DNA of 64,000 bases from Escherichia coli (GTDB taxonomy: Bacteria; Pseudomonadota; Gammaproteobacteria; Enterobacterales; Enterobacteriaceae), in NCBI RefSeq assembly GCF_965641715.1, contig NZ_OZ282453.1; one strand, written 5' to 3'. The notes below the pieces were generated by a model. It searched no databases. It was not told the origin of the DNA and saw only the letters and a list, made by a program, of their open reading frames with translations. Numbering within the stretch: the first letter of the stretch is position 1; each line of letters begins with the position of its first letter. Both the position numbers and the translations under genes were made by a program. This document shows, piece after piece, positions 7,019-53,641 of the stretch.

Positions 7019-7828
7019 ATGTCGTTTTCCTGTCCACTTTGCCATCAGCCTCTTTCGCGTGAAAAAAACAGCTATATCTGTCCCCAACGACATCAGTTTG
7101 ATATGGCGAAAGAAGGGTATGTCAATCTGCTGCCCGTTCAGCATAAACGGTCTCGTGATCCGGGCGACAGCGCGGAAATGATGCAAGCACGCCGCGCATT
7201 CTTAGATACCGGACATTATCAGCCGCTGCGTGATGCAATTGTCGCCCAACTGCGGGAACGGCTTGATGAAAAGGCCACGGCGGTGCTGGATATTGGCTGT
7301 GGTGAAGGGTATTACACACACGCATTTGCCGATGCGTTGCCCGAAATCACCACGTTTGGTCTGGATGTTTCGAAGGTAGCGATAAAAGCGGCGGCGAAAC
7401 GCTATCCGCAGGTCACTCTTTGTGTCGCTTCCAGCCACCGTTTGCCGTTTTCCGATACCAGTATGGACGCCATAATACGTATTTACGCGCCGTGTAAAGC
7501 AGAAGAATTAGCACGAGTAGTGAAGCCCGGCGGCTGGGTCATTACTGCCACGCCGGGACCGCGACATTTGATGGAGCTGAAGGGGCTGATTTACAATGAA
7601 GTACATCTTCATGCACCTCATGCAGAACAACTGGAAGGTTTTACATTACAGCAGAGTGATGAGTTGTGTTATCCGATGCGTCTTCGCGGTGATGAAGCCG
7701 TCGCATTATTGCAGATGACGCCGTTTGCCTGGCGTGCGAAGCCAGAAGTCTGGCAAACACTGGCAGCAAAAGAAGTGTTCGACTGCCAGACGGACTTTAA
7801 TATTCACCTCTGGCAGCGTTCTTATTAA
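7019..7828 (+). CDS. rlmA: 23S rRNA m1G745 methyltransferase RlmA
   Basis: 269-aa ORF with N-terminal Cys4 zinc ribbon (CPLC...CPQRH) and SAM-binding motif DIGCGEGYY. Confidence 0.9.
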
Positions 7829-22812: not shown

Positions 22813-23508
22813 ATGCGAATTCTGGCTATCGATACCGCGACAGAGGCCTGCTCTGTCGCCCTGTGGAACGACGGTACTGTCAACGCTCATTTTGAGCTTT
22901 GCCCTCGTGAACATACTCAACGAATCTTACCGATGGTGCAGGATATCCTGACCACCAGCGGTACCTCCCTCTCTGATATTGATGCTCTGGCCTACGGGCG
23001 CGGCCCCGGTAGTTTTACCGGCGTGCGCATTGGTATAGGCATTGCGCAGGGGCTGGCACTTGGCGCGGCGCTGCCGATGATTGGCGTCTCCACGCTCATG
23101 ACGATGGCGCAGGGGGCGTGGCGCAAAAACGGCGCAACGCGCGTGCTGGCTGCCATTGATGCGCGGATGGGCGAAGTTTACTGGGCCGAATATCAGCGTG
23201 ATGAAAACGGCGTCTGGCACGGCGAAGAAACCGAAGCCGTACTCAAACCCGAACTCGTTCATGAACGGATGCAACAGCTTTCCGGGGAATGGGTGACGGT
23301 AGGTACAGGCTGGCAAGCCTGGCCGGATCTCGGTAAAGAGAGCGGACTGGTTTTGCGCGACGGAGAAGTTTTACTGCCCGCTGCAGAAGATATGCTGCCG
23401 ATTGCTTGTCAGATGTTTGCCGAGGGTAAAACGGTGGCGGTGGAACATGCCGAACCGGTTTATTTACGTAACAACGTCGCATGGAAGAAACTTCCGGGCA
23501 AAGAATGA
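22813..23508 (+). CDS. tsaB: tRNA t6A biosynthesis protein TsaB (YeaZ)
   Basis: 231-aa [21 protein letters not shown]..., inactive Kae1/YgjD paralog. Confidence 0.9.
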
Positions 23509-23547
23509 ATCTTAAGAGTATGCCCTGAGAAAAAAAGGAGTCGCATC

Positions 23548-24129
23548 ATGGCGGTTCAAAAGAATGTTATCAAAGGCATACTGGCAGGTACGTTTGCGCT
23601 AATGCTGAGCGGTTGTGTCACTGTGCCGGACGCCATTAAAGGCAGTAGTCCCACGCCGCAACAAGATTTAGTTCGGGTGATGAGTGCGCCGCAGCTGTAC
23701 GTTGGTCAGGAGGCACGCTTTGGTGGCAAAGTGGTTGCGGTACAAAACCAGCAAGGGAAAACCCGCCTGGAGATTGCTACCGTACCGCTGGACAGCGGAG
23801 CCAGACCGACGCTGGGAGAACCTTCTCGCGGTCGCATTTATGCCGATGTGAACGGTTTTCTGGACCCGGTGGATTTCCGTGGACAACTGGTTACGGTAGT
23901 CGGGCCAATCACTGGTGCGGTTGACGGCAAAATCGGCAATACGCCCTATAAATTTATGGTGATGCAAGTAACGGGTTACAAACGTTGGCATTTAACCCAG
24001 CAGGTGATTATGCCGCCTCAGCCGATTGATCCATGGTTTTATGGCGGTCGTGGCTGGCCCTATGGCTACGGCGGATGGGGCTGGTATAATCCCGGCCCCG
24101 CGAGAGTACAAACAGTTGTAACTGAATAA
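23548..24129 (+). CDS. yeaY: Slp-family outer-membrane lipoprotein YeaY
   Basis: 193-aa ORF with lipoprotein signal peptide and lipobox (LSGC). Confidence 0.8.
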
Positions 24130-24333
24130 TTGCTTGTTTTTAAAGAAAAAGAAACAGCGGCTGGTCCGCTGTTTCTGCATTCTTACGGTAAAGATAAAAA
24201 TAAATAGTGACGCGCTTCGCAACCTTTTCGTTGGGTAATTATCAAGCTGGTAAGATGAGTTAATATTATGTTAACAACATGTTTATCACTTGGGGTTGCG
24301 ATGACGACGAACACGCATTTTAGAGGTGAAGAA

Positions 24334-26019
24334 TTGAAGAAGGTTTGGCTTAACCGTTATCCCGCGGACGTTCCGACGGAGATCAACCCTGACCGTTATC
24401 AATCTCTGGTAGATATGTTTGAGCAGTCGGTCGCGCGCTACGCCGATCAGCCTGCGTTTGTGAATATGGGGGAGGTGATGACCTTCCGCAAGCTGGAAGA
24501 ACGCAGTCGCGCGTTTGCCGCTTATTTGCAACAAGGGTTGGGGCTGAAGAAAGGCGATCGCGTTGCGTTGATGATGCCTAACTTATTGCAATATCCGGTG
24601 GCGCTGTTTGGCATTTTGCGTGCCGGGATGATCGTCGTAAACGTTAACCCGTTGTATACCCCGCGTGAACTTGAGCATCAGCTTAACGATAGCGGCGCAT
24701 CGGCGATTGTTATCGTGTCTAACTTTGCTCACACACTGGAAAAAGTGGTTGATAAAACCGCCGTTCAGCACGTAATTCTGACCCGTATGGGCGATCAGCT
24801 ATCTACGGCAAAAGGCACGGTAGTCAATTTCGTTGTTAAATACATCAAGCGTCTGGTGCCGAAATACCATCTGCCAGATGCCATTTCATTTCGTAGCGCC
24901 CTGCATAACGGCTACCGGATGCAGTACGTCAAACCCGAACTGGTGCCAGAAGATTTAGCCTTCCTGCAATACACCGGCGGCACCACAGGTGTGGCGAAAG
25001 GCGCGATGCTGACTCACCGCAATATGCTGGCGAACCTGGAACAGGTCAACGCCACCTATGGGCCGTTGCTGCATCCAGGTAAAGAACTGGTAGTAACGGC
25101 ACTGCCGCTGTATCACATTTTTGCCCTGACCATTAACTGCCTGCTGTTTATCGAACTGGGTGGGCAGAACCTGCTTATCACTAACCCGCGTGATATTCCA
25201 GGGTTGGTAAAAGAGTTAGCGAAATATCCGTTTACCGCTATCACTGGCGTTAACACCTTGTTCAATGCGTTGCTGAACAATAAAGAGTTCCAGCAGCTGG
25301 ATTTCTCCAGTCTTCATCTTTCCGCAGGCGGTGGGATGCCAGTGCAGCAAGTGGTGGCAGAGCGTTGGGTGAAACTGACAGGACAGTATCTGCTGGAAGG
25401 CTATGGCCTTACCGAGTGTGCGCCGCTGGTCAGCGTTAACCCATATGATATTGATTATCATAGTGGTAGCATCGGTTTGCCGGTGCCGTCGACGGAAGCC
25501 AAACTGGTGGATGATGATGATAATGAAGTACCACCGGGTCAACCGGGTGAGCTTTGTGTCAAAGGACCGCAGGTGATGCTGGGTTACTGGCAGCGTCCGG
25601 ATGCTACCGATGAGATCATCAAAAATGGCTGGTTACACACCGGCGACATCGCGGTGATGGATGAAGAAGGGTTCCTGCGCATTGTCGATCGTAAAAAAGA
25701 CATGATTCTGGTTTCCGGTTTTAACGTCTATCCCAACGAGATTGAAGATGTCGTCATGCAGCATCCTGGCGTACAGGAAGTCGCGGCTGTTGGCGTACCT
25801 TCCGGCTCCAGTGGTGAAGCGGTAAAAATCTTTGTAGTGAAAAAAGATCCATCGCTTACCGAAGAGTCACTGGTGACTTTTTGCCGCCGTCAGCTCACGG
25901 GCTACAAAGTACCGAAGCTGGTGGAGTTTCGTGATGAGTTACCGAAATCTAACGTCGGAAAAATTTTGCGACGAGAATTACGTGACGAAGCGCGCGGCAA
26001 AGTGGACAATAAAGCCTGA
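24334..26019 (+). CDS. fadD: Long-chain fatty acid-CoA ligase FadD
   Basis: Acyl-CoA synthetase motifs ([22 protein letters not shown]); start placed at TTG giving [14 protein letters not shown] (561 aa) as I recall it; the track ORF starts 22 codons upstream at ATG. Confidence 0.85.
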
Positions 26020-26038
26020 GCGTTAAGTCAGTCGTCAG

Positions 26039-26064
26039 ACGCCGGTTAATCCGGCGTTTTTTTT
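26039..26064 (+). terminator. Intrinsic terminator after fadD
   Basis: Stem ACGCCGG/CCGGCGT with TTAAT loop, followed by 8 T. Confidence 0.8.
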
Positions 26065-26088
26065 GACGCCCACTAAAGAGAATACAAT

Positions 26089-27216
26089 TTGAATTACCAA
26101 ATGATTACCACGGACGATGCGCTGGCTTCTTTGTGTGAAGCCGTCCGTGCCTTTCCGGCGATAGCCCTGGATACTGAATTTGTTCGTACGCGCACTTATT
26201 ACCCGCAGCTGGGGTTGATTCAACTTTTCGATGGCGAGCATCTGGCGCTAATTGATCCTCTCGGGATCACCGACTGGTCACCGCTGAAAGCGATCCTGCG
26301 CGATCCGTCCATCACAAAATTTCTCCATGCAGGCAGTGAAGATCTGGAAGTGTTCCTCAATGTCTTTGGCGAATTACCACAACCCCTGATTGACACGCAA
26401 ATCCTTGCTGCCTTCTGCGGACGCCCGATGTCATGGGGTTTTGCTTCCATGGTGGAAGAGTATTCCGGCGTTACGCTGGACAAGAGTGAATCGCGCACCG
26501 ACTGGCTGGCCAGACCGCTGACCGAACGTCAGTGTGAATATGCAGCGGCGGATGTCTGGTATCTGTTACCGATCACCGCCAAGCTTATGGTAGAAACGGA
26601 GGCCTCCGGCTGGCTACCAGCGGCGCTGGATGAATGCCGCCTGATGCAAATGCGTCGTCAGGAAGTCGTTGCGCCGGAAGATGCCTGGCGTGATATCACC
26701 AATGCCTGGCAATTACGCACACGCCAACTGGCCTGTCTGCAACTGTTAGCCGACTGGCGACTGCGCAAGGCGCGAGAGCGCGATCTGGCGGTGAACTTTG
26801 TCGTGCGTGAAGAGCATTTGTGGTCGGTAGCGCGTTATATGCCGGGAAGTTTAGGCGAACTGGACAGCCTGGGTTTATCCGGTAGCGAAATCCGCTTTCA
26901 CGGTAAAACGCTGCTGGCGCTGGTGGAAAAAGCGCAGACATTGCCGGAAGAGGCCTTACCGCAGCCGATGCTTAACCTGATGGACATGCCGGGTTATCGT
27001 AAAGCGTTTAAAGCGATTAAGTCGCTGATTACTGACGTGAGCGAAACGCACAAGATCAGCGCCGAATTGCTGGCATCGCGTCGGCAAATCAACCAACTGC
27101 TGAACTGGCACTGGAAACTGAAACCGCAGAACAATTTGCCGGAGCTGATTTCCGGCTGGCGTGGTGAGCTGATGGCGGAAGCATTACACAATTTATTGCA
27201 GGAATATCCGCAGTAA
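26089..27216 (+). CDS. rnd: Ribonuclease D
   Basis: 375-aa ORF, DEDDy 3'-5' exonuclease domain plus HRDC domains. Confidence 0.9.
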   Translation: MNYQMITTDDALASLCEAVRAFPAIALDTEFVRTRTYYPQLGLIQLFDGEHLALIDPLGITDWSPLKAILRDPSITKFLHAGSEDLEVFLNVFGELPQPLIDTQILAAFCGRPMSWGFASMVEEYSGVTLDKSESRTDWLARPLTERQCEYAAADVWYLLPITAKLMVETEASGWLPAALDECRLMQMRRQEVVAPEDAWRDITNAWQLRTRQLACLQLLADWRLRKARERDLAVNFVVREEHLWSVARYMPGSLGELDSLGLSGSEIRFHGKTLLALVEKAQTLPEEALPQPMLNLMDMPGYRKAFKAIKSLITDVSETHKISAELLASRRQINQLLNWHWKLKPQNNLPELISGWRGELMAEALHNLLQEYPQ

Positions 27217-27222
27217 AATTTT

Positions 27223-27265
27223 CCGAAGCCGGACTGGGCGCGCTCAGCGCCACATCCGGCTTCGG
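27223..27265. repeat. REP-like extended palindrome between convergent rnd and yeaX
   Basis: 11-bp perfect stem CCGAAGCCGGA/TCCGGCTTCGG enclosing a GC-rich inner palindrome; GCCGGA/TCCGGC cores typical of REP elements. Confidence 0.6.
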
Positions 27266-27269
27266 CAAA

Positions 27270-28235
27270 CTACAAATCCAACACCAGGCGTTTACCCTTC
27301 GCACGCGAACAACAGATCAACATACTTTGCTGGCTGGCACGCTCTTCATCGCTAAAATACTGATCCCGATGGTCAGCTTCACCTTCCAGTATTGCCGTTT
27401 CGCAGGTTCCGCATACCCCTTCACGACATAAACATTCCACTTTCGCGGCTTTATTATTTTCAATAACCTGCAAAATAGTCATCTCTTCCGGCACCACAAA
27501 CTCTTTTCCGGAACGGGCAAGCACCAGGGTAAATGCATCGCCGGTTTTGTCTTCGATAGCAAATTGCTCAAAGTGCAGCGTATCGGCAGCGATGTCCAGA
27601 CGCGCAGCTTCACTTCTTACCGCTTCAATTAGCGCCTCGGGGCCACAGGTATAAACGTGTGTGCCAGGTTCGATATCCGCCAATAATCGCGCTAATTCCA
27701 GTCGTGTTCCGGTTGATGAATGATGCAAATGGACTTTCTCAGCCTGCGGATGCTGGACTAGCTCATCACGAAATGCGCATCTTTCTGGATTTCGCGAGCA
27801 GTAATGTAGCTGCCAGTCGACGTCGCTGTGTTGCAACTCTGCCATGTGCGACAGGAAAGGGGTGATACCAATACCGCCCGCGATAAACAGATGCTTTCTG
27901 GCTGAGGGAATTAGCGCAAACAGGTTATTAGGCGTTGAGATCGTTAACCGATCGCCCACTTTTACCTGCTGATGCAAAAAGCGGGAACCGCCGCGCGAGT
28001 TTTCTTCCAGTCGAACGGCAATCTGATAACTAGAGGTGTTATGCGGTGAACTCAGTAGTGAATACGCATTGCTGTACTGGTTATCACCATCGCTCATCTG
28101 CACTATGATGTGACTTCCTCCGGTGAACGCAGGCAGCGGTTTGCCATCGGTTGCCACCAGCGTGAAGCGTTTCACCTGTTCGGTAAGCGGTTCCACCTGA
28201 CTCACCTGTACTTCAAACATTTGATAGTCTGACAT
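27270..28235 (-). CDS. yeaX: Oxygenase reductase subunit YeaX (FNR-like flavin domain plus 2Fe-2S ferredoxin)
   Basis: 321-aa ORF; C-terminal plant-type ferredoxin cysteines (CREGVCGTC...C); reductase partner of the adjacent Rieske oxygenase. Confidence 0.85.
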   Translation of the reverse strand: MSDYQMFEVQVSQVEPLTEQVKRFTLVATDGKPLPAFTGGSHIIVQMSDGDNQYSNAYSLLSSPHNTSSYQIAVRLEENSRGGSRFLHQQVKVGDRLTISTPNNLFALIPSARKHLFIAGGIGITPFLSHMAELQHSDVDWQLHYCSRNPERCAFRDELVQHPQAEKVHLHHSSTGTRLELARLLADIEPGTHVYTCGPEALIEAVRSEAARLDIAADTLHFEQFAIEDKTGDAFTLVLARSGKEFVVPEEMTILQVIENNKAAKVECLCREGVCGTCETAILEGEADHRDQYFSDEERASQQSMLICCSRAKGKRLVLDL

Positions 28236-28290
28236 TGCTGTACTCCATCAAAAATCAGCCCGGCGGCGGAAAATACCGCCGCCGATGTCA

Positions 28291-29415
28291 TTAGTCCTTA
28301 AATACCTGCGCCAGCAGATTATGGAAATGGGCGATACCATGTTCGGAAATGCCGCTACCGCTACTGTCGGCCATGATGCGCCCCTGACCACGATAGCCAC
28401 GCGATTTCAGCCCTTTCTGTACGCTTTCAACCAGACGTAAATCTTCCGGACGGAACACATCGCGATACCACTCAATCAGCGATTTTTGCTCGTCGGTTAA
28501 CTCTTCATTGGTGAAGTAAATATCGTAGTTTTGCAGGGTAGTTTCAGAATCCACCGGGAATTCATAAATGACCGTCATCATCCCTTTGATCGGGGTGACG
28601 TTCAGCATCGTGCACGGCCACAGCCAGAAACCGTGGAATGCCGCATCCGTACCCTCTTCAAATTTAAACGACTGTTCGGACGGTTTGGCGAAACCGTATT
28701 GCAGCGTCCAGTTACCGTGCATGGTGTGCCAGTAACGATCAACCTGAACGGAGTCGGAGAAACCTGGATGCGCCGGACCACAGTGATAGCACTCGAGATA
28801 GTTATCGACAATGTTCTTCCAGTTGGCAGGCGTGCGGGTGGTAAAGCGGGCCGCCAGTTTCAGGTCGTGGACTTCCGGGCAGGCTTCCAGCACTTTCGCC
28901 CCCAGACCGGGTAACTGATCTTCTACGCTGGAGGCGTTGGGGTCCATGTTGATGAAGACGAATCCGGCATATTCTTCCAGACGTACTGGAACCAGTTGCG
29001 CTTTGTCGCTATCGAAATTGGCGACGTTTTCGCAGTTACGTGCATGGGCCAGATTGCCATCGAGTTTGAATGCCCATGCGTGATATGGGCAGGTAATCAC
29101 ATTTTTTGCTTTTCCTTCACCGCTCAACAACTGATGACCACGGTGCGGACACACGTTATAGAACGCGCGCAAAACCTTATCACGACCGCGTACCAGCACG
29201 ATGCTTTCGCCAATGATCTCACGCGTCACATAATCATTGGCATTCGCCAGTTCGCTGCTGTGAGCGACGCAAATCCAGCTTTTGGCGAAGACGTTCTCTT
29301 TTTCGTGTTCAAAGGCGTTCTGATCGGTATAAAAACGGGCAGGAATGGTCCACGCCTCTTGCGGGTTAGCGCAAAAATTTTCGGGTAGTACAAAGTCAGG
29401 GCTCAGATTGCTCAT
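28291..29415 (-). CDS. yeaW: Rieske 2Fe-2S non-heme iron oxygenase YeaW (carnitine monooxygenase-like)
   Basis: Rieske motif CPHRG...CPYHAW; start set at MSNLSPDF (374 aa), track ORF extends 40 codons upstream. Confidence 0.85.
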   Translation of the reverse strand: MSNLSPDFVLPENFCANPQEAWTIPARFYTDQNAFEHEKENVFAKSWICVAHSSELANANDYVTREIIGESIVLVRGRDKVLRAFYNVCPHRGHQLLSGEGKAKNVITCPYHAWAFKLDGNLAHARNCENVANFDSDKAQLVPVRLEEYAGFVFINMDPNASSVEDQLPGLGAKVLEACPEVHDLKLAARFTTRTPANWKNIVDNYLECYHCGPAHPGFSDSVQVDRYWHTMHGNWTLQYGFAKPSEQSFKFEEGTDAAFHGFWLWPCTMLNVTPIKGMMTVIYEFPVDSETTLQNYDIYFTNEELTDEQKSLIEWYRDVFRPEDLRLVESVQKGLKSRGYRGQGRIMADSSGSGISEHGIAHFHNLLAQVFKD

Positions 29416-29446
29416 AGGGATACCTTTATCGTTAGGATGATGGCGC

Positions 29447-31057
29447 TCAGTTGTCGCCTTTGAATACGGTTCCCGCAGGGAGCACTGGTGTTTTTTCCAG
29501 GGCTTCAACCGGTGTCTGCGGGAGATAATGTTCAACTTGATGAGCCGGAATGTCGGCGTAATCCTGTTTCAGCCAGCGAATAAATCCGCCGACTTTCACC
29601 AGTAAAATGACGAGGAAGGGAAGGGCTGTGAGCACGACGGTGGTTTTCATCGTTTCCAGCGAAGCACCGGTAAACAAGATGGAAAGCGGGATCAGAGTGA
29701 TCACCACGCACCAGAAAAGACGCAGCCCACGGTCAGGATCGTCACCTTCCTGGAGATTACGCGTACTGGTCGCCGCCATGGTGTAGGCCACTGCATCCAT
29801 ATGCGAGGCAAGGAAAATAATCATTACGCCCAGGTATGCGGCGAGGAACAATTTACCGGCTGGCAACGACATCAGAACTTGCTGTACAGCTGTTTCGCCG
29901 CCCAGTGTTTCCAGCACCTGTGGGACGTTGATTACGCCATTGATAAACTGATGAATGGCATAGCTTTCCATTACGCCGAAGAAGAACCAGCAACCGACGG
30001 TGCTGCCGAGGATCAGTCCCCAGATAACTTCTTTAATCTTACGACCGCGGGAAACGCGGGTGACAAACATTGCTACGCCAGGGGGGTATGAGATCCACCA
30101 CAGCCAGTAGAAAACGGTCCAGTTGCGGGTAAATGAACCATCGCCAAGCGGATCGGTGAATAAGCTCATTTGCAGGAAGTTTTGCGTGGTCAGACCGATG
30201 GCATTGATGATGCTGTTGGTAATAAATTCGGTTGGACCGACAATCAGCACCAGTAATGTCAGCAGGAACGCGCCCCAGCCAACCATTTTGCTCAGACGTT
30301 GCAAACCGTTGTTGATACCAATCCATGAGCTTAGGCAAAAAATGCCGCCGGAAAGCAGGATCACAAATGCCTGCACGGTGAAGTTATCGGGTAAACCGGT
30401 CAGTGCGGAAAGTCCGCGAGTAAAGGTTGCTGCGGTGACAACAAGGGAAATAGTCAGTGCGCCGACAGTGGCGATCAGGAACATCAAATCAACCAGTTTT
30501 CCCCATGGGCCTTGCGGGCGAACGCCGGTAATCGCGGCAATAATGCCGGAAAGACTCAGACCTTTGTTTTTCCGCACATGAAAGTGATAAGCCATGATTA
30601 ATGAGGCCAGCGTATAAGTTGCCCAGGCGCTGATGCCCCAGTGGAAGAAGGAGTAAGGGACGCTAAATTCGAGTGCCTGTTGTGAACGCGGTGCGATATT
30701 TAATCCAGGCGTTTGATAATAATAGGCCCATTCAGCAACCCCCCAATAAAGCGTAGAAGAACCTAAACCGGCACAAATAAACATAAACAGCCAGGAGAGC
30801 GTGCTGTATTCCGGTTTTCCTTCGCCAAGACGAATATTGCCGTATTTACTGGTGGCTAAATAAATCACCAGTCCCATTGCCAGCAAAACCAATACCTGTA
30901 CGGCGGAACCTAACGTACGCGTAACAAAAGTGTATATTGCGTTGGCCGCGTCGGCCGATTGTTGTGGGAAAAGGCTTAATGCAGCTGCGATGAAAAGAAT
31001 GGCCACCAGGCTGATGCTTATCAGCGGCACATCTTTTTTCTTAACATTGCTCATCAT
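29447..31057 (-). CDS. yeaV: BCCT-family (betaine/carnitine/choline) transporter YeaV
   Basis: Polytopic membrane ORF with Trp-rich BCCT signature region ([14 protein letters not shown]); true start codon uncertain, full track ORF given. Confidence 0.8.
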
Positions 31058-31261
31058 GAGTCATCTCCTGGGCATAAAAGCCCGTCTCTGGCTTTTGCCA
31101 GTTGTAATTATTTGCAGGGTAATGAGTTGTATGTTGTGTTTAACAAATTGATTATTTGCATGTTACATAAATTAAACAATTAAGAATACGGAAAGCCATA
31201 AAACACGAAACGGAAACAATAAAAGGTGAAATGACGCAGGTTATTAACTGCAAAGAACGAA

Positions 31262-31288
31262 TAAAAAAACCGCGTCAGTGACGCGGTT
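31262..31288 (-). terminator. Intrinsic terminator after dmlA
   Basis: Minus-strand hairpin CCGCGTC/GACGCGG followed by U-run (A-run 31263-31269 on plus strand). Confidence 0.7.
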
Positions 31289-31307
31289 CAAATAAACTGG
31301 TTTGACC

Positions 31308-32393
31308 TTAACGCAAAATAATTTTGCAAATCGCGTCGGCAACCTGTGGCGTGGTGGCACTGCCTTTCATATCCGGTGTTTTCGGCCCGTGAGCAATCAC
31401 TTCTTCAATCGCTGCCAGAATACCGTTATGCGCTTGCTGGAAACGCTCATCGCCATTGCCGAGAAAATCGAGCATCATTGCACCGGCCCAAATTGTGGCG
31501 ATAGGGTTAGCAATATTTTTCCCGTAGATATCCGGCGCGGAACCGTGGACAGGCTCGAAGAGCGACGGGAAAGTGCGTTCCGGATTCAGGTTGGCGGATG
31601 GGGCAATGCCAATGGTGCCGGTGCAGGCCGGGCCAAGATCGGAAAGGATATCGCCAAACAAATTGGACGCCACCACCACATCGAAGCGTTCCGGCTGCAT
31701 CACAAAACGCGCGCAGAGAATATCAATATGCTGCTTGTCCCAGCGGATCTCCGGGTAATTCTCGGCCATTGCTTCCACTCGCTCATCCCAGTACGGCATG
31801 CAGATGGCTAAACCGTTTGATTTAGTGGCAGAAGTTAGCGTCTTACGTGGGCGGCTTTGCGCAAGTTCGAAGGCATAACGCAAAATGCGATCGACACCAC
31901 GACGCGTAAATACCGATTCCTGAATGACGACTTCATGCTCTGTACCTTCATTCACTCTACCGCCGAGCGAGGAATATTCGCCTTCGGTGTTTTCCCTGAC
32001 CACGTAAAAATCGATGTCGCCAGGCTGTTTTCCCGCCAGCGGGCAGGGAACGCCAGGAAAGAGACGAACCGGGCGCAGGTTGACGTACTGGTCGAATTCA
32101 CGACGAAATTTCAGCAGCGAACCCCACAACGAAATATGGTCCGGAACGGTGTCCGGCCAGCCGACGGCACCAAAATAGATGGCGTCGAAACGGCTAAGTT
32201 GCTCATGCCAGTCGTCCGGCATCATTTTACCGTGATGGCTGTAATACTCGCAGCTCGCCCACTCCATTTGCTCAAAACTCAAGGCGAAGCCCCAGCGCTC
32301 AGCGGCAGCCTGTAACACGCGAATCCCTTCAGGAAGGACTTCTTTGCCAATCCCGTCTCCCGGGATCGCAGCAATACGCATCGTTTTCATCAT
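31308..32393 (-). CDS. dmlA: D-malate dehydrogenase (decarboxylating) DmlA (YeaU)
   Basis: 361-aa ORF of the isocitrate/isopropylmalate/tartrate dehydrogenase family. Confidence 0.9.
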   Translation of the reverse strand: MMKTMRIAAIPGDGIGKEVLPEGIRVLQAAAERWGFALSFEQMEWASCEYYSHHGKMMPDDWHEQLSRFDAIYFGAVGWPDTVPDHISLWGSLLKFRREFDQYVNLRPVRLFPGVPCPLAGKQPGDIDFYVVRENTEGEYSSLGGRVNEGTEHEVVIQESVFTRRGVDRILRYAFELAQSRPRKTLTSATKSNGLAICMPYWDERVEAMAENYPEIRWDKQHIDILCARFVMQPERFDVVVASNLFGDILSDLGPACTGTIGIAPSANLNPERTFPSLFEPVHGSAPDIYGKNIANPIATIWAGAMMLDFLGNGDERFQQAHNGILAAIEEVIAHGPKTPDMKGSATTPQVADAICKIILR

Positions 32394-32495
32394 TGGGTTC
32401 TCACTTCCTGACCATCAAAATTGACAACATCACCATCCTATAATTGACTGAAAAGGAATTAATCCCTGTAACTGGTGAAACATAAAACACGAATC

Positions 32496-33419
32496 ATGAA
32501 TAATTTACCGCTGCTGAATGATTTGCGCGTCTTTATGCTGGTGGCTCGCCGGGCTGGTTTTGCCGCCGTGGCGGAAGAACTGGGCGTTTCACCGGCGTTC
32601 GTCAGCAAGCGCATCGCCTTGCTGGAGCAAACGCTAAACGTGGTGTTGTTACACCGCACCACCCGCCGCGTCACCATTACCGAAGAAGGAGAGCGGATTT
32701 ATGAATGGGCGCAGCGGATTTTGCAGGATGTCGGTCAGATGATGGACGAACTTTCTGACGTGCGTCAGGTGCCACAGGGGATGCTGCGTATTATCAGCAG
32801 CTTTGGTTTTGGACGACAGGTGGTGGCTCCGGCGTTATCAGCGCTGGCGAAGGCGTATCCGCAACTGGAATTACGTTTTGATGTGGAAGACCGGCTGGTC
32901 GATTTGGTCAATGAAGGTGTCGATCTCGATATTCGCATTGGCGATGACATCGCCCCTAATTTAATCGCCCGCAAACTGGCGACCAATTACCGCATTCTCT
33001 GCGCGTCGCCGGAATTTATTGCGCAACATGGCACGCCGAAACATTTAACCGATCTTTCTGCATTGCCGTGCCTGGTCATTAAAGAGCGCGATCATCCTTT
33101 TGGTGTCTGGCAATTACGCAATAAAGAAGGCCACCATGCGATTAAAGTCACCGGCCCACTGTCGTCTAATCATGGAGAAATTGTCCATCAGTGGTGTCTC
33201 GATGGGCAGGGGATTGCTCTGCGTTCCTGGTGGGATGTTAGCGAAAACATTGCCAGTGGTCATTTAGTGCAAGTGCTACCGGAATATTACCAGCCAGCGA
33301 ACGTCTGGGCCGTTTATGTTTCAAGGCTGGCGACGTCAGCGAAAGTGCGGATAACGGTAGAATTTTTACGCCAGTATTTTGCCGAGCACTACCCGAATTT
33401 TTCACTGGAGCATGCCTGA
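32496..33419 (+). CDS. dmlR: LysR-family regulator DmlR (YeaT), divergent from dmlA
   Basis: N-terminal LysR HTH; start set at MNNLPLLNDLRVF (307 aa), track ORF begins 7 codons earlier. Confidence 0.85.
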   Translation: MNNLPLLNDLRVFMLVARRAGFAAVAEELGVSPAFVSKRIALLEQTLNVVLLHRTTRRVTITEEGERIYEWAQRILQDVGQMMDELSDVRQVPQGMLRIISSFGFGRQVVAPALSALAKAYPQLELRFDVEDRLVDLVNEGVDLDIRIGDDIAPNLIARKLATNYRILCASPEFIAQHGTPKHLTDLSALPCLVIKERDHPFGVWQLRNKEGHHAIKVTGPLSSNHGEIVHQWCLDGQGIALRSWWDVSENIASGHLVQVLPEYYQPANVWAVYVSRLATSAKVRITVEFLRQYFAEHYPNFSLEHA

Positions 33420-33476
33420 TTAATGATTCAATTATCGGGTTGATATCAGGTTAAAACCTGATTTTCTCCTTTCTAA

Positions 33477-34184
<708 letters not shown>

Positions 34185-34262
34185 TGCTTTCAGCCCGCGT
34201 TGTCGCGGGCTTCCCATCTATAATCCTCCCTGATTCTTCTCTGATATGGTGCTAAAAAGTAA

Positions 34263-34290
34263 CCAATAAATGGTATTTAAAATGCAAATT
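34263..34290 (+). promoter_or_regulatory. Putative NsrR operator in the yeaR promoter
   Basis: AT-rich imperfect palindrome CCAATAAATGGTATTTAAAATGCAAATT about 70 bp upstream of the yeaR start; the yeaR-yoaG operon is known to be NsrR/NarL regulated. Confidence 0.4.
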
Positions 34291-34356
34291 ATCAGGCGTA
34301 CCCTGAAACGGCTGGAATAAACCGTTTTCAGCGCATTCACCGAAGGAGGGAAAAGG

Positions 34357-34479
34357 ATGCTTCAAATCCCACAGAATTATATTCATACGCGCTCAACGCC
34401 TTTCTGGAATAAACAAACTGCACCTGCTGGAATATTCGAACGTCATCTTGATAAAGGAACGCGCCCGGGGGTTTACCCC
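34357..34479 (+). pseudogene. yeaR: yeaR 5' fragment (codons 1-41), interrupted by IS186
   Basis: MLQIPQNYIHTRSTPFWNKQTAPAGIFERHLDKGTRPGVYP then reads into the IS and stops after 13 foreign codons. Confidence 0.85.
34468..34478. repeat. Left target-site duplication of IS186 (GGGGTTTACCC)
   Basis: Identical 11-mer recurs at 35817-35827 immediately after the right end of the IS. Confidence 0.8.
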
Positions 34480-35816
34480 ATAAGCGCTAACTTAAGGGTT
34501 GTGGTATTACGCCTGATATGATTTAACGTGCCGATGAATTACTCTCACGATAACTGGTCAGCAATTCTGGCCCATATTGGTAAGCCCGAAGAACTGGATA
34601 CTTCGGCACGTAATGCCGGGGCTCTAACCCGCCGCCGCGAAATTCGTGATGCTGCAACTCTGCTACGTCTGGGGCTGGCTTACGGCCCCGGGGGGATGTC
34701 ATTACGTGAAGTCACTGCATGGGCTCAGCTCCATGACGTTGCAACATTATCTGACGTGGCTCTCCTGAAGCGGCTGCGGAATGCCGCCGACTGGTTTGGC
34801 ATACTTGCCGCACAAACACTTGCTGTACGCGCCGCAGTTACGGGTTGTACAAGCGGAAAGAGATTGCGTCTTGTCGATGGAACAGCAATCAGTGCGCCCG
34901 GGGGCGGCAGCGCTGAATGGCGACTACATATGGGATATGATCCTCATACCTGTCAGTTCACTGATTTTGAGCTAACCGACAGCAGAGACGCTGAACGGCT
35001 GGACCGATTTGCGCAAACGGCAGACGAGATACGCATTGCTGACCGGGGATTCGGTTCGCGTCCCGAATGTATCCGCTCACTTGCTTTTGGAGAAGCTGAT
35101 TATATCGTCCGGGTTCACTGGCGAGGATTGCGCTGGTTAACTGCAGAAGGAATGCGCTTTGACATGATGGGTTTTCTGCGCGGGCTGGATTGCGGTAAGA
35201 ACGGTGAAACCACTGTAATGATAGGCAATTCAGGTAATAAAAAAGCCGGAGCTCCCTTTCCGGCACGTCTCATTGCCGTATCACTTCCTCCCGAAAAAGC
35301 ATTAATCAGTAAAACCCGACTGCTCAGCGAGAATCGTCGAAAAGGACGAGTAGTTCAGGCGGAAACGCTGGAAGCAGCGGGCCATGTGCTATTGCTAACA
35401 TCATTACCGGAAGATGAATATTCAGCAGAGCAAGTGGCTGATTGTTACCGTCTGCGATGGCAAATTGAACTGGCTTTTAAGCGGCTCAAAAGTTTGCTGC
35501 ACCTGGATGCTTTGCGTGCAAAGGAACCTGAACTCGCGAAAGCGTGGATATTTGCTAATCTACTCGCCGCATTTTTAATTGACGACATAATCCAGCCATC
35601 GCTGGATTTCCCCCCCAGAAGTGCCGGATCCGAAAAGAAGAACTAACTCGTTGTGGAGAATAACAAAAATGGTCATCTGGAGCTTACAGGTGGCCATTCG
35701 TGGGACAGTATCCCTGACAGCCTACAAAACGCAATTGAAGAACGCGAGGCATCGTCTTAACGAGGCACCGAGGCGTCGCATTCTTCAGATGGTTCAACCC
35801 TTAAGTTAGCGCTTAT
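34479..35816 (+). mobile_element. Insertion sequence IS186 (IS4 family), about 1338 bp
   Basis: Perfect 22-bp terminal inverted repeats ATAAGCGCTAACTTAAGGGTTG (34480-34501) and its reverse complement (35795-35816); single transposase ORF; flanked by an 11-bp direct repeat; boundary uncertain by 1 bp on the left. Confidence 0.9.
34528..35646 (+). CDS. IS186 transposase (DDE, IS4 family)
   Basis: 372-aa ORF MPMNYSHDNWSAILAHIGKPEELDTSARNAGALTRRREIRDAATLLRLGLAYGPGG... recognised as the IS186 transposase. Confidence 0.9.
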   Translation: MPMNYSHDNWSAILAHIGKPEELDTSARNAGALTRRREIRDAATLLRLGLAYGPGGMSLREVTAWAQLHDVATLSDVALLKRLRNAADWFGILAAQTLAVRAAVTGCTSGKRLRLVDGTAISAPGGGSAEWRLHMGYDPHTCQFTDFELTDSRDAERLDRFAQTADEIRIADRGFGSRPECIRSLAFGEADYIVRVHWRGLRWLTAEGMRFDMMGFLRGLDCGKNGETTVMIGNSGNKKAGAPFPARLIAVSLPPEKALISKTRLLSENRRKGRVVQAETLEAAGHVLLLTSLPEDEYSAEQVADCYRLRWQIELAFKRLKSLLHLDALRAKEPELAKAWIFANLLAAFLIDDIIQPSLDFPPRSAGSEKKN

Positions 35817-35827
35817 GGGGTTTACCC
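35817..35827. repeat. Right target-site duplication of IS186 (GGGGTTTACCC)
   Basis: Direct repeat of 34468-34478. Confidence 0.8.
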
Positions 35828-36065
35828 ACGCCTTTCCGTTATGCATGGGGCGGTCAAATATCTCGGCTACGCTGATGAACACAGTGCAGAGCCTGATCAG
35901 GTGATCCTTATCGAAGCGGGGCAGTTTGCGGTGTTCCCTCCAGAAAAGTGGCACAACATTGAAGCCATGACTGACGATACTTATTTCAACATTGACTTCT
36001 TCGTGGCTCCTGAAATCCTGATGGAAGGTGCGCAACAACGGAAAGTCATTCATAACGGGAAATGA
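35817..36065 (+). pseudogene. yeaR: yeaR 3' fragment (DUF1971), in frame with the duplicated target
   Basis: GVYPRLSVMHGAVKYLGYADEHSAEPDQVILIEAGQFAVFPPEKWHNIEAMTDDTYFNIDFFVAPEILMEGAQQRKVIHNGK; the duplicated GVYP codons show the IS split one ORF. Confidence 0.85.
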
Positions 36066-36068
36066 ATC

Positions 36069-36251
36069 ATGGGCAAAGCAACGTATACCGTGACCGTCAC
36101 CAATAACAGCAATGGCGTTTCTGTCGATTATGAAACAGAGACGCCGATGACTTTGCTGGTGCCAGAAGTGGCGGCTGAAGTGATAAAAGATCTGGTGAAT
36201 ACCGTGCGTTCTTATGACACGGAAAACGAACATGATGTTTGTGGTTGGTAA
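36069..36251 (+). CDS. yoaG: Small protein YoaG (DUF1869)
   Basis: 60-aa ORF starting 4 bp after the yeaR stop; second gene of the yeaR-yoaG operon. Confidence 0.8.
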   Translation: MGKATYTVTVTNNSNGVSVDYETETPMTLLVPEVAAEVIKDLVNTVRSYDTENEHDVCGW

Positions 36252-36398
36252 TTATCACTGATCGTTGATGGCGCAATTTCTGCGCCATCGCAAAATAATC
36301 CTCCGTGATGCTCGTCACAAATCTTGCCCTCCCGATGTTGTGCTATGCTTTTTATCAGCGACTAACCCGCTAATGCAAAACAGATAAGTGAGGAAACA

Positions 36399-36647
36399 AT
36401 GGGCATTCTGTCATGGATTATTTTTGGGCTTATTGCCGGTATTCTGGCGAAGTGGATCATGCCAGGTAAAGATGGTGGTGGATTCTTTATGACTATCCTG
36501 CTGGGGATAGTCGGTGCCGTAGTCGGCGGATGGATCAGCACGCTGTTTGGCTTTGGTAAAGTTGATGGCTTCAATTTTGGCAGCTTCGTGGTTGCCGTTA
36601 TTGGTGCGATTGTCGTGCTATTTATCTACAGGAAGATTAAAAGTTAA
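36399..36647 (+). CDS. yeaQ: Transglycosylase-associated (GlsB/YeaQ/YmgE) small membrane protein YeaQ
   Basis: 82-aa Gly-rich two-TM ORF. Confidence 0.85.
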   Translation: MGILSWIIFGLIAGILAKWIMPGKDGGGFFMTILLGIVGAVVGGWISTLFGFGKVDGFNFGSFVVAVIGAIVVLFIYRKIKS

Positions 36648-51890: not shown

Positions 51891-52898
<1,008 letters not shown>

Positions 52899-53227
52899 CT
52901 ATTTGTTAGTGAATAAAAGGTTGCCTGTAAAATTACAAAAACCTTACGCAGCGTCAAGCGGAATCGTGTCAATCATTGCGACAAATCAATCCTGTGCCTA
53001 AGCATTACGCGACTGACTCGCCTCACTCTTCCTTTGGGCTTGAGACCACATGGGGTCGGCGCCCCGAATTTTAAAGGGCAATTACGATAAAAATGTGATT
53101 TTCATCACGATTTAGGTGCAGCCATTTCGTCGAGATCAAGTTTAGGACAAAATTTTGCCAGTTGGTGTTAATGTTTTGTTAGAATCAGTCACGTAATGTG
53201 AGCACGATTAAAGTGAGATGTGAGCAA

Positions 53228-53641
53228 ATGGCTAATAAACCTTCGGCAGAAGAACTGAAAAAAAATTTGTCCGAGATGCAGTTTTACGTGACGCAGAATC
53301 ATGGGACAGAGCCGCCATTTACGGGTCGTTTACTGCATAACAAGCGTGACGGCGTATATCACTGTTTGATCTGCGATGCCCCGCTGTTTCATTCCCAAAC
53401 CAAGTATGATTCCGGCTGTGGCTGGCCCAGTTTCTACGAACCGGTAAGTGAAGAATCCATTCGTTATATCAAAGACTTGTCACATGGAATGCAGCGCATA
53501 GAAATTCGTTGCGGTAACTGTGATGCCCATCTGGGGCATGTCTTCCCTGATGGGCCGCAGCCAACGGGCGAACGTTATTGTGTTAACTCTGCCTCTTTAC
53601 GCTTTACCGATGGCGAAAACGGCGAAGAAATCAACGGTTGA
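53228..53641 (+). CDS. msrB: Peptide methionine-(R)-sulfoxide reductase MsrB
   Basis: SelR domain with two CxxC pairs ([19 protein letters not shown]); start set at [10 protein letters not shown] (137 aa). Confidence 0.9.

Follow-up and report, generated by a model that had tools for sequence, protein, structure and literature searches.

Insertion sites of IS186 in Escherichia coli follow the motif GGGG(N6/N7)CCCC, at which repeated insertions occur in either orientation. One or two mismatches to the motif were present in 7/59 sites (Lee et al., 2016, PMC5009759). Besides single insertions, hot spots have been described. The genes fimA and menC were hit recurrently in mutation-accumulation lines (PMC5009759). 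The lon promoter of E. coli B is another IS186 hot spot, as far as the work of saiSree et al. (2001) is cited in PMC6307192.

The gene yeaR is a further target. PFM2, a derivative of MG1655, has an extra IS186 within yeaR (PMC5009759). In many antibiotic-evolved MG1655 strains the insertion arose de novo, in some series in 4/4, 3/3 and 4/4 strains, and the authors linked yeaR::IS186 to enrofloxacin exposure (PMC6307192). In two mouse-gut populations, IS186 at yeaR position 1877853 attained frequencies of 10% and 66%, and the study names yeaR::IS186 among the parallel targets of wild-type mice (PMC4674774). The insertion of IS186 into yeaR is an already known event and has been reported repeatedly in MG1655 lines. 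The site described below corresponds to 1879827-1879836 in NC_000913.3. Position 1877853 presumably belongs to an older reference numbering with an offset of about 1975 bp, and we take it to be the same site.

The window, i.e. the whole 64-kb stretch of E. coli DNA that was analyzed, has the gene order leuE - yeaR - yoaG - yeaQ, as in MG1655. Within yeaR it carries a complete IS186. The locus comprises the following features:

34260-34275, plus strand: NarL 7-2-7 activator site TAACCAATAAATGGTA, an exact match to the yeaR promoter site of PMC10853779
34268-34290, plus strand: NsrR 11-1-11 operator AAATGGTATTTAAAATGCAAATT, an exact match to the CFT073 yeaR site of PMC5320621
34357-34521, plus strand: truncated yeaR' open reading frame of 54 aa, made up of 41 native YeaR residues and 13 IS-encoded residues
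34469-34478, no strand: left copy of the target-site duplication, GGGTTTACCC, 10 bp
34479-35817, plus strand: IS186, 1339 bp, IS4 family, in the orientation of yeaR; identical to IS186A, with boundaries set by comparison with an inverted copy (strain Dam/Dcm)
34479-34501, plus strand: left terminal inverted repeat CATAAGCGCTAACTTAAGGGTTG, 23 bp
34534-35646, plus strand: insL transposase gene, 370 aa from the ATG at 34534, DDE transposase
35795-35817, minus strand: right terminal inverted repeat (inverted CATAAGCGCTAACTTAAGGGTTG), 23 bp
35818-35827, no strand: right copy of the target-site duplication, GGGTTTACCC, 10 bp
35818-36068, plus strand: promoter-less 3' part of yeaR, from the second base of codon 38 through the stop codon
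36069-36251, plus strand: yoaG (DUF1869), 60 aa, intact, with a protein identical to K-12 YoaG

The element is identical to IS186A of MG1655 (NC_000913.3) over its full length, in 1339/1339 bases. Its terminal 23-mer CATAAGCGCTAACTTAAGGGTTG has exactly two perfect matches in the 64-kb window, with no mismatch and a chance expectation of 0. The encoded InsL protein contains the Pfam domain DDE_Tnp_1 (PF01609, E 3.6e-26) and is recognized by the NCBIfam model NF033592 for IS4 family transposases with 133.3 bits at a cut-off of 115. The RefSeq annotation has protein WP_001300563.1 at the corresponding position. The RefSeq start is the ATG at 34534 (370 aa), while reading from a GTG at 34528 yields the 372-aa transposase (34528-35646) of the initial annotation. 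That annotation had also recognized a complete IS186 in yeaR, which is borne out by the full-length identity, by both ends and by the full open reading frame. Neither the reading frame nor either end of the element in the window is damaged or deviates from active K-12 copies, and the element is predicted to be able to transpose.

The boundaries of element and duplication required a decision on the register. A repeat search placed the direct repeat GGGGTTTACCC at 34468-34478 and 35817-35827, and the initial reading was accordingly an 11-bp duplication with inverted repeats of 22 bp. This register was rejected on the basis of two other copies. Strain Dam/Dcm carries the identical 1339-bp element inverted at the same yeaR site, with its C...G ends retained. 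The junctions there are GGGTTTACCC|CATAAGCG... and ...CGCTTATG|GGGTTTACCC. Because the terminal C and G travel with the inverted element, they belong to IS186, and the perfect repeats measure 23 bp and the duplication 10 bp. The IS186A copy of MG1655 is arranged likewise, with a 10-bp duplication GGATCACTCC at the target GGGG-ATCACT-CCCC. The 11th matching G in the window is the final base of the IS and coincides with an extra G of the target.

The native yeaR target is GGGG-GTTTAC-CCAC, with a 6-bp core and one mismatch to GGGG(N6)CCCC in the right arm. A clean transposition into a GGGG-N-CCCC target had been proposed initially. The clean transposition stands, and the structure is that of a completed event; the motif is not perfect, and the CCAC arm counts against reading the site as a hot spot. 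In the proposed mechanism, the IS4-family DDE transposase would recognize the near-palindromic GGGG-GTTTAC-CCAC in yeaR. Cuts staggered by 10 bp would be followed by insertion of the 1339-bp IS186, and repair would create the 10-bp duplication. Cut-and-paste chemistry, with a 10-bp stagger between the two cuts, would be expected from the membership of the enzyme in the IS4 family of DDE transposases.

In the window, yeaR is a null allele. The gene starts at 34357, and the first base of IS186 takes the third position of codon 41, which agrees with the codons 41-42 and the 41 native residues given at first. The truncated frame ends with a TGA at 34519-34521, 12 nt before the ATG of insL. DUF1971 spans most of YeaR, so the domain is split by the insertion. 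It had been taken for a C-terminal part that was cut off from the promoter together with yoaG; the separation from the promoter is correct, the placement of DUF1971 in the C-terminal part is not. The 3' part of yeaR shares its reading frame with the GVYP codons of the duplication, as had been noted for both sides, but on the right side this frame is closed by a TAA of the IS at 35802-35804. In other genomes, RefSeq has a partial DUF1971 pseudogene at the stretch equivalent to yeaR', and in other occupied genomes a partial yeaR pseudogene at that of the 3' part. In-silico removal of IS186 and one copy of the repeat restores a 119-aa YeaR, which differs from the K-12 protein solely by V104I.

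The control region of yeaR lies upstream of IS186, and its NarL and NsrR sites are intact. A putative NsrR box upstream of yeaR was part of the initial annotation, and the operator at 34268-34290 matches the published site exactly. The NarL site of the yeaR promoter is centered at -43.5 (PMC10853779). Counted from this published position, transcription of yeaR would start near 34311. The NarL/NsrR-controlled promoter would now read into IS186. With the stop codon of yeaR' only 12 nt before insL in the plus orientation, nitrate- or NO-induced read-through could reach the transposase gene.

The distance between the yeaR promoter and yoaG is increased by 1349 bp, while the start signals of yoaG itself are retained. 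From the stop codon of insL to yoaG, the RNA is untranslated for about 420 nt, which makes Rho-dependent polarity plausible, and the expression of yoaG is probably reduced by polarity. A terminator scan of 34150-36450 and RNA folds of the IS ends revealed no canonical intrinsic terminator on the plus strand of IS186, so that read-through to yoaG is possible. The scan returned two weak terminator-like hairpins only, the same number as in shuffled sequence. On the plus strand of the element, one weak hairpin was located at 35534-35547 by the scan, and a 12-bp hairpin lacking a U tract was located at 35668-35698 by folding. The left end of the IS folds unremarkably (z -1.6), and the right end shows structure (z -2.6), again with no U tract. 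A promoter scan of 34150-36450 returned no sigma-70-like site of any kind; as it misses even the real, activator-dependent yeaR promoter, it is little guide to outward promoters.

Occupancy of the site was determined in 5426 complete E. coli genomes. The reconstructed empty site was present at a coverage of at least 80% in 4963/5426 genomes, including MG1655, C600 and J53. IS186 in the plus orientation was indicated by the left junction in 194 and by the right junction in 196 genomes. A chimeric junction query for the same site identified the minus orientation in 251 further genomes, among them Dam/Dcm, ET12567 and ML35. Taking both orientations together, about 446/5426 genomes are occupied (~8%), corresponding to ~20% of the IS186 carriers. 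These counts contain clonal redundancy; 19 of the first 40 plus-orientation matches were CV601 or its derivatives. IS186 is carried by 2220 genomes at 7821 chromosomal places, and ~6% of the copies reside at the 10-bp yeaR site.

The flanking sequences separate several insertions. CV601 (plus orientation) has flanks identical over ~4.1 kb to those of MG1655, in which the site is empty. Likewise, the flanks of Dam/Dcm (minus orientation) are identical to those of empty MG1655 over ~2.8 kb. Two O169:H41 strains, 2014EL-1345-2 with the plus-orientation insertion and F6326-C1 with an empty site, showed 0 differences in an aligned region of 5 kb surrounding the site. This aligned region supplied the figure used; when the full 13.9-kb O169:H41 loci were compared ungapped, 1274 differences were counted. 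IS186 is in the plus orientation in the window, in strain 100416 and in the O169 strain, whose haplotypes are 20-37 differences apart in 4 kb. Plus-orientation insertions occur on at least four flank haplotypes. Strain O25:H16 F5505-C1 was left out of the haplotype table, as an IS1 located downstream in dgcP distorts the alignment.

The window itself represents a distinct, rare natural haplotype that diverges by ~0.8% from K-12 over the surrounding 4 kb. The nearest differences from K-12 are at 34428, 51 bp to the left of the IS, and at 36015, 188 bp to the right. Among the 5426 complete genomes, the best match reached 99.4% identity for a 21.7-kb part of the window; for 1.9 kb surrounding the site, the best value was 99.5%. 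A contig of the draft assembly GCA_965259455.1 is 100% identical to window positions 23447-34604 and ends 126 bp inside IS186. This contig is from the same rare lineage. Provided that it does not derive from the very genome of the window, it is also evidence for the left junction.

Very probably, the insertion results from ordinary IS186 transposition into a natural, recurrent hot spot in yeaR, at which the element has inserted many times independently in E. coli, in either direction. The insertion in the window would be one more instance, placed on its own flank haplotype.

Selection may be considered in place of neutral hot-spot noise. Certain niches might favor the loss of yeaR, or IS186 might rewire expression, by driving or silencing yoaG or by exposing insL to the nitrate/NO-induced promoter, and occupied alleles would rise in frequency. 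The 66% reached in one mouse-gut population and the parallel insertions in wild-type mice (PMC4674774) are consistent with selection, as are the association with enrofloxacin (PMC6307192), the occupancy of ~20% of the IS186-carrying genomes and the short spacing between the yeaR' stop codon and insL. Recurrence is explained without selection if insertion into a preferred target is frequent, as at fimA and menC (PMC5009759), and the frequency of both orientations argues against a regulatory benefit that depends on orientation. No sigma-70-like outward promoter was found in 34150-36450 by the scan, though the same scan fails on the real yeaR promoter. There is no known yeaR phenotype, and a yeaR-yoaG mutant retained the NO-scavenging activity tested (PMC5320621). 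Selection as the cause is rated unlikely. A more specific proposal, regarded as quite doubtful, views the yeaR site as a contingency locus. IS186 would switch off yeaR-yoaG, which would be favored in certain niches, and the plus orientation would place insL under nitrate/NO control. Candidate niches are the gut of immunocompetent hosts and fluoroquinolone exposure. If insL were indeed read from the yeaR promoter, inflammation or nitrosative signals would influence the mobility of IS186.

Recurrent transposition into a hot spot has also to be weighed against a single ancient IS186 insertion in yeaR that was inherited or spread by recombination. This history underlies the initial annotation, which regarded the insertion as probably a strain- or lineage-specific lesion and took yeaR to be intact in MG1655. 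The gene is uninterrupted in NC_000913.3 as well as in resequenced MG1655, so the reference does not carry the same IS at the site. Most genomes lack the insertion too, and element and position are identical in all plus-orientation genomes examined; both points favor a lineage marker. A common origin is contradicted by the two orientations at the same base, by K-12 sublines and O169:H41 strains that have identical flanks and differ in occupancy, by the four or more plus-orientation haplotypes and by the de novo events documented in the laboratory (PMC5009759, PMC6307192, PMC4674774). Strain specificity was abandoned in view of the ~446/5426 occupied genomes in both orientations, the several haplotypes and the isogenic empty partners, and a single origin is considered highly improbable. 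An occupied allele could, in principle, also reach a new background by recombination; for the window, the transferred tract would have to be smaller than ~1.6 kb. A misplacement of an IS186 copy into yeaR during repeat resolution is extremely improbable. In its favor, assemblies often break or are mis-joined at IS copies, which are identical repeats, and the draft of the same lineage breaks inside IS186. Against it, that draft contig reads through the same left junction before it ends in the IS, the element has a regular 10-bp target duplication on its two sides, and hundreds of independently finished genomes show the same junctions.

The recurrent insertion has consequences for the use of this allele. 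yeaR::IS186 is a common background polymorphism, also in the K-12 laboratory sublines PFM2, CV601, Dam/Dcm and ET12567. It should not be taken for a lineage marker, and its appearance in evolution experiments is not automatically an adaptive hit. The prevalence figures, i.e. ~8% of the genomes, ~20% of the carriers and ~6% of the copies, quantify the attraction of IS186 to one 10-bp site in nature. Occupied strains are natural yeaR null mutants and could be of use in the search for a phenotype of the strongly nitrate/NO-induced, uncharacterized yeaR-yoaG operon.

Compared with the known hot spots in the lon promoter, fimA and menC, the yeaR site is likewise recurrent and site-specific, accepts the element in either orientation and belongs to the GGGG(N6/7)CCCC-type targets. 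It deviates from the motif in one base (CCAC) and is located within the coding sequence of an uncharacterized gene. Unlike lon, the yeaR site is without a clear phenotype. The three reference copies IS186A, IS186B and IS186C of K-12 (insL1-3, labeled 'IS421 family' in RefSeq) are located elsewhere in MG1655. The copy in the window agrees with IS186A in every base, and the 23-bp repeats, the 370-aa DDE transposase and a 10-bp duplication centered on a palindrome of a G-run and a C-run are shared; the difference is one of location only. The closest counterparts are the published yeaR::IS186 alleles of PFM2, of the antibiotic-evolved strains and of the mouse-gut populations, which arose in K-12 and share both the gene and the element with the window.

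Between 23447 and 34604, the window is 100% identical to a contig of the NCBI draft assembly GCA_965259455.1 (locus L009); this contig stops 126 bp into IS186. Among the 5426 complete E. coli genomes, the closest reaches about 99.4-99.5% in the same region and none is nearer. Because of this distance, the window is, as judged from sequence identity, of a rare lineage. The left flank of the insertion carries a synonymous T at 34428 in codon 24 of yeaR (GCT, compared with GCC in K-12). A 100% match to this flank was absent from the best matches listed for the 5426 complete genomes, whether occupied by IS186 or empty.

The truncated reading frame yeaR' ends with a TGA at 34519-34521, and the transposase ATG at 34534 follows 12 nt further on (stretch 34519-34536). 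With IS186 oriented this way, the yeaR promoter, which nitrate and NO induce, could supply transcripts of the IS186 transposase gene, and translation of yeaR' and the transposase might be coupled.

Altered yeaR regions occur in other strains. In UMNK88 (locus L015, 4406-5521), the IS186 in yeaR measures 1343 bp and its transposase gene is frameshifted. These features point to an insertion that is older or has decayed, or else to sequencing errors. The O25:H16 strain F5505-C1 (locus L014, 6666-7363) carries IS1B in dgcP besides IS186 in yeaR. About 10 genomes of the 5426-genome collection have a split yeaR region with IS186 at the yeaR site in neither the same (+) nor the opposite (-) orientation to yeaR, among them AW1.7, with IS1A in this region.

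The perfect IS186 target motif, GGGG(N6)CCCC, is present only once in the 64-kb window, in the gapA-msrB intergenic region, and is unoccupied:

51891-52895, minus strand, gapA
53052-53065, perfect target motif, GGGGTCGGCGCCCC
53198-53641, plus strand, msrB

A further segment of the window, 225 bp at 30929-31153, is missing in K-12. It comprises the start of the yeaV gene together with sequence upstream of it:

29447-31057, minus strand, yeaV, intact ORF of 536 aa

The yeaV of K-12, in contrast, is flagged in RefSeq as partial with a missing N-terminus, while that of the window is intact.
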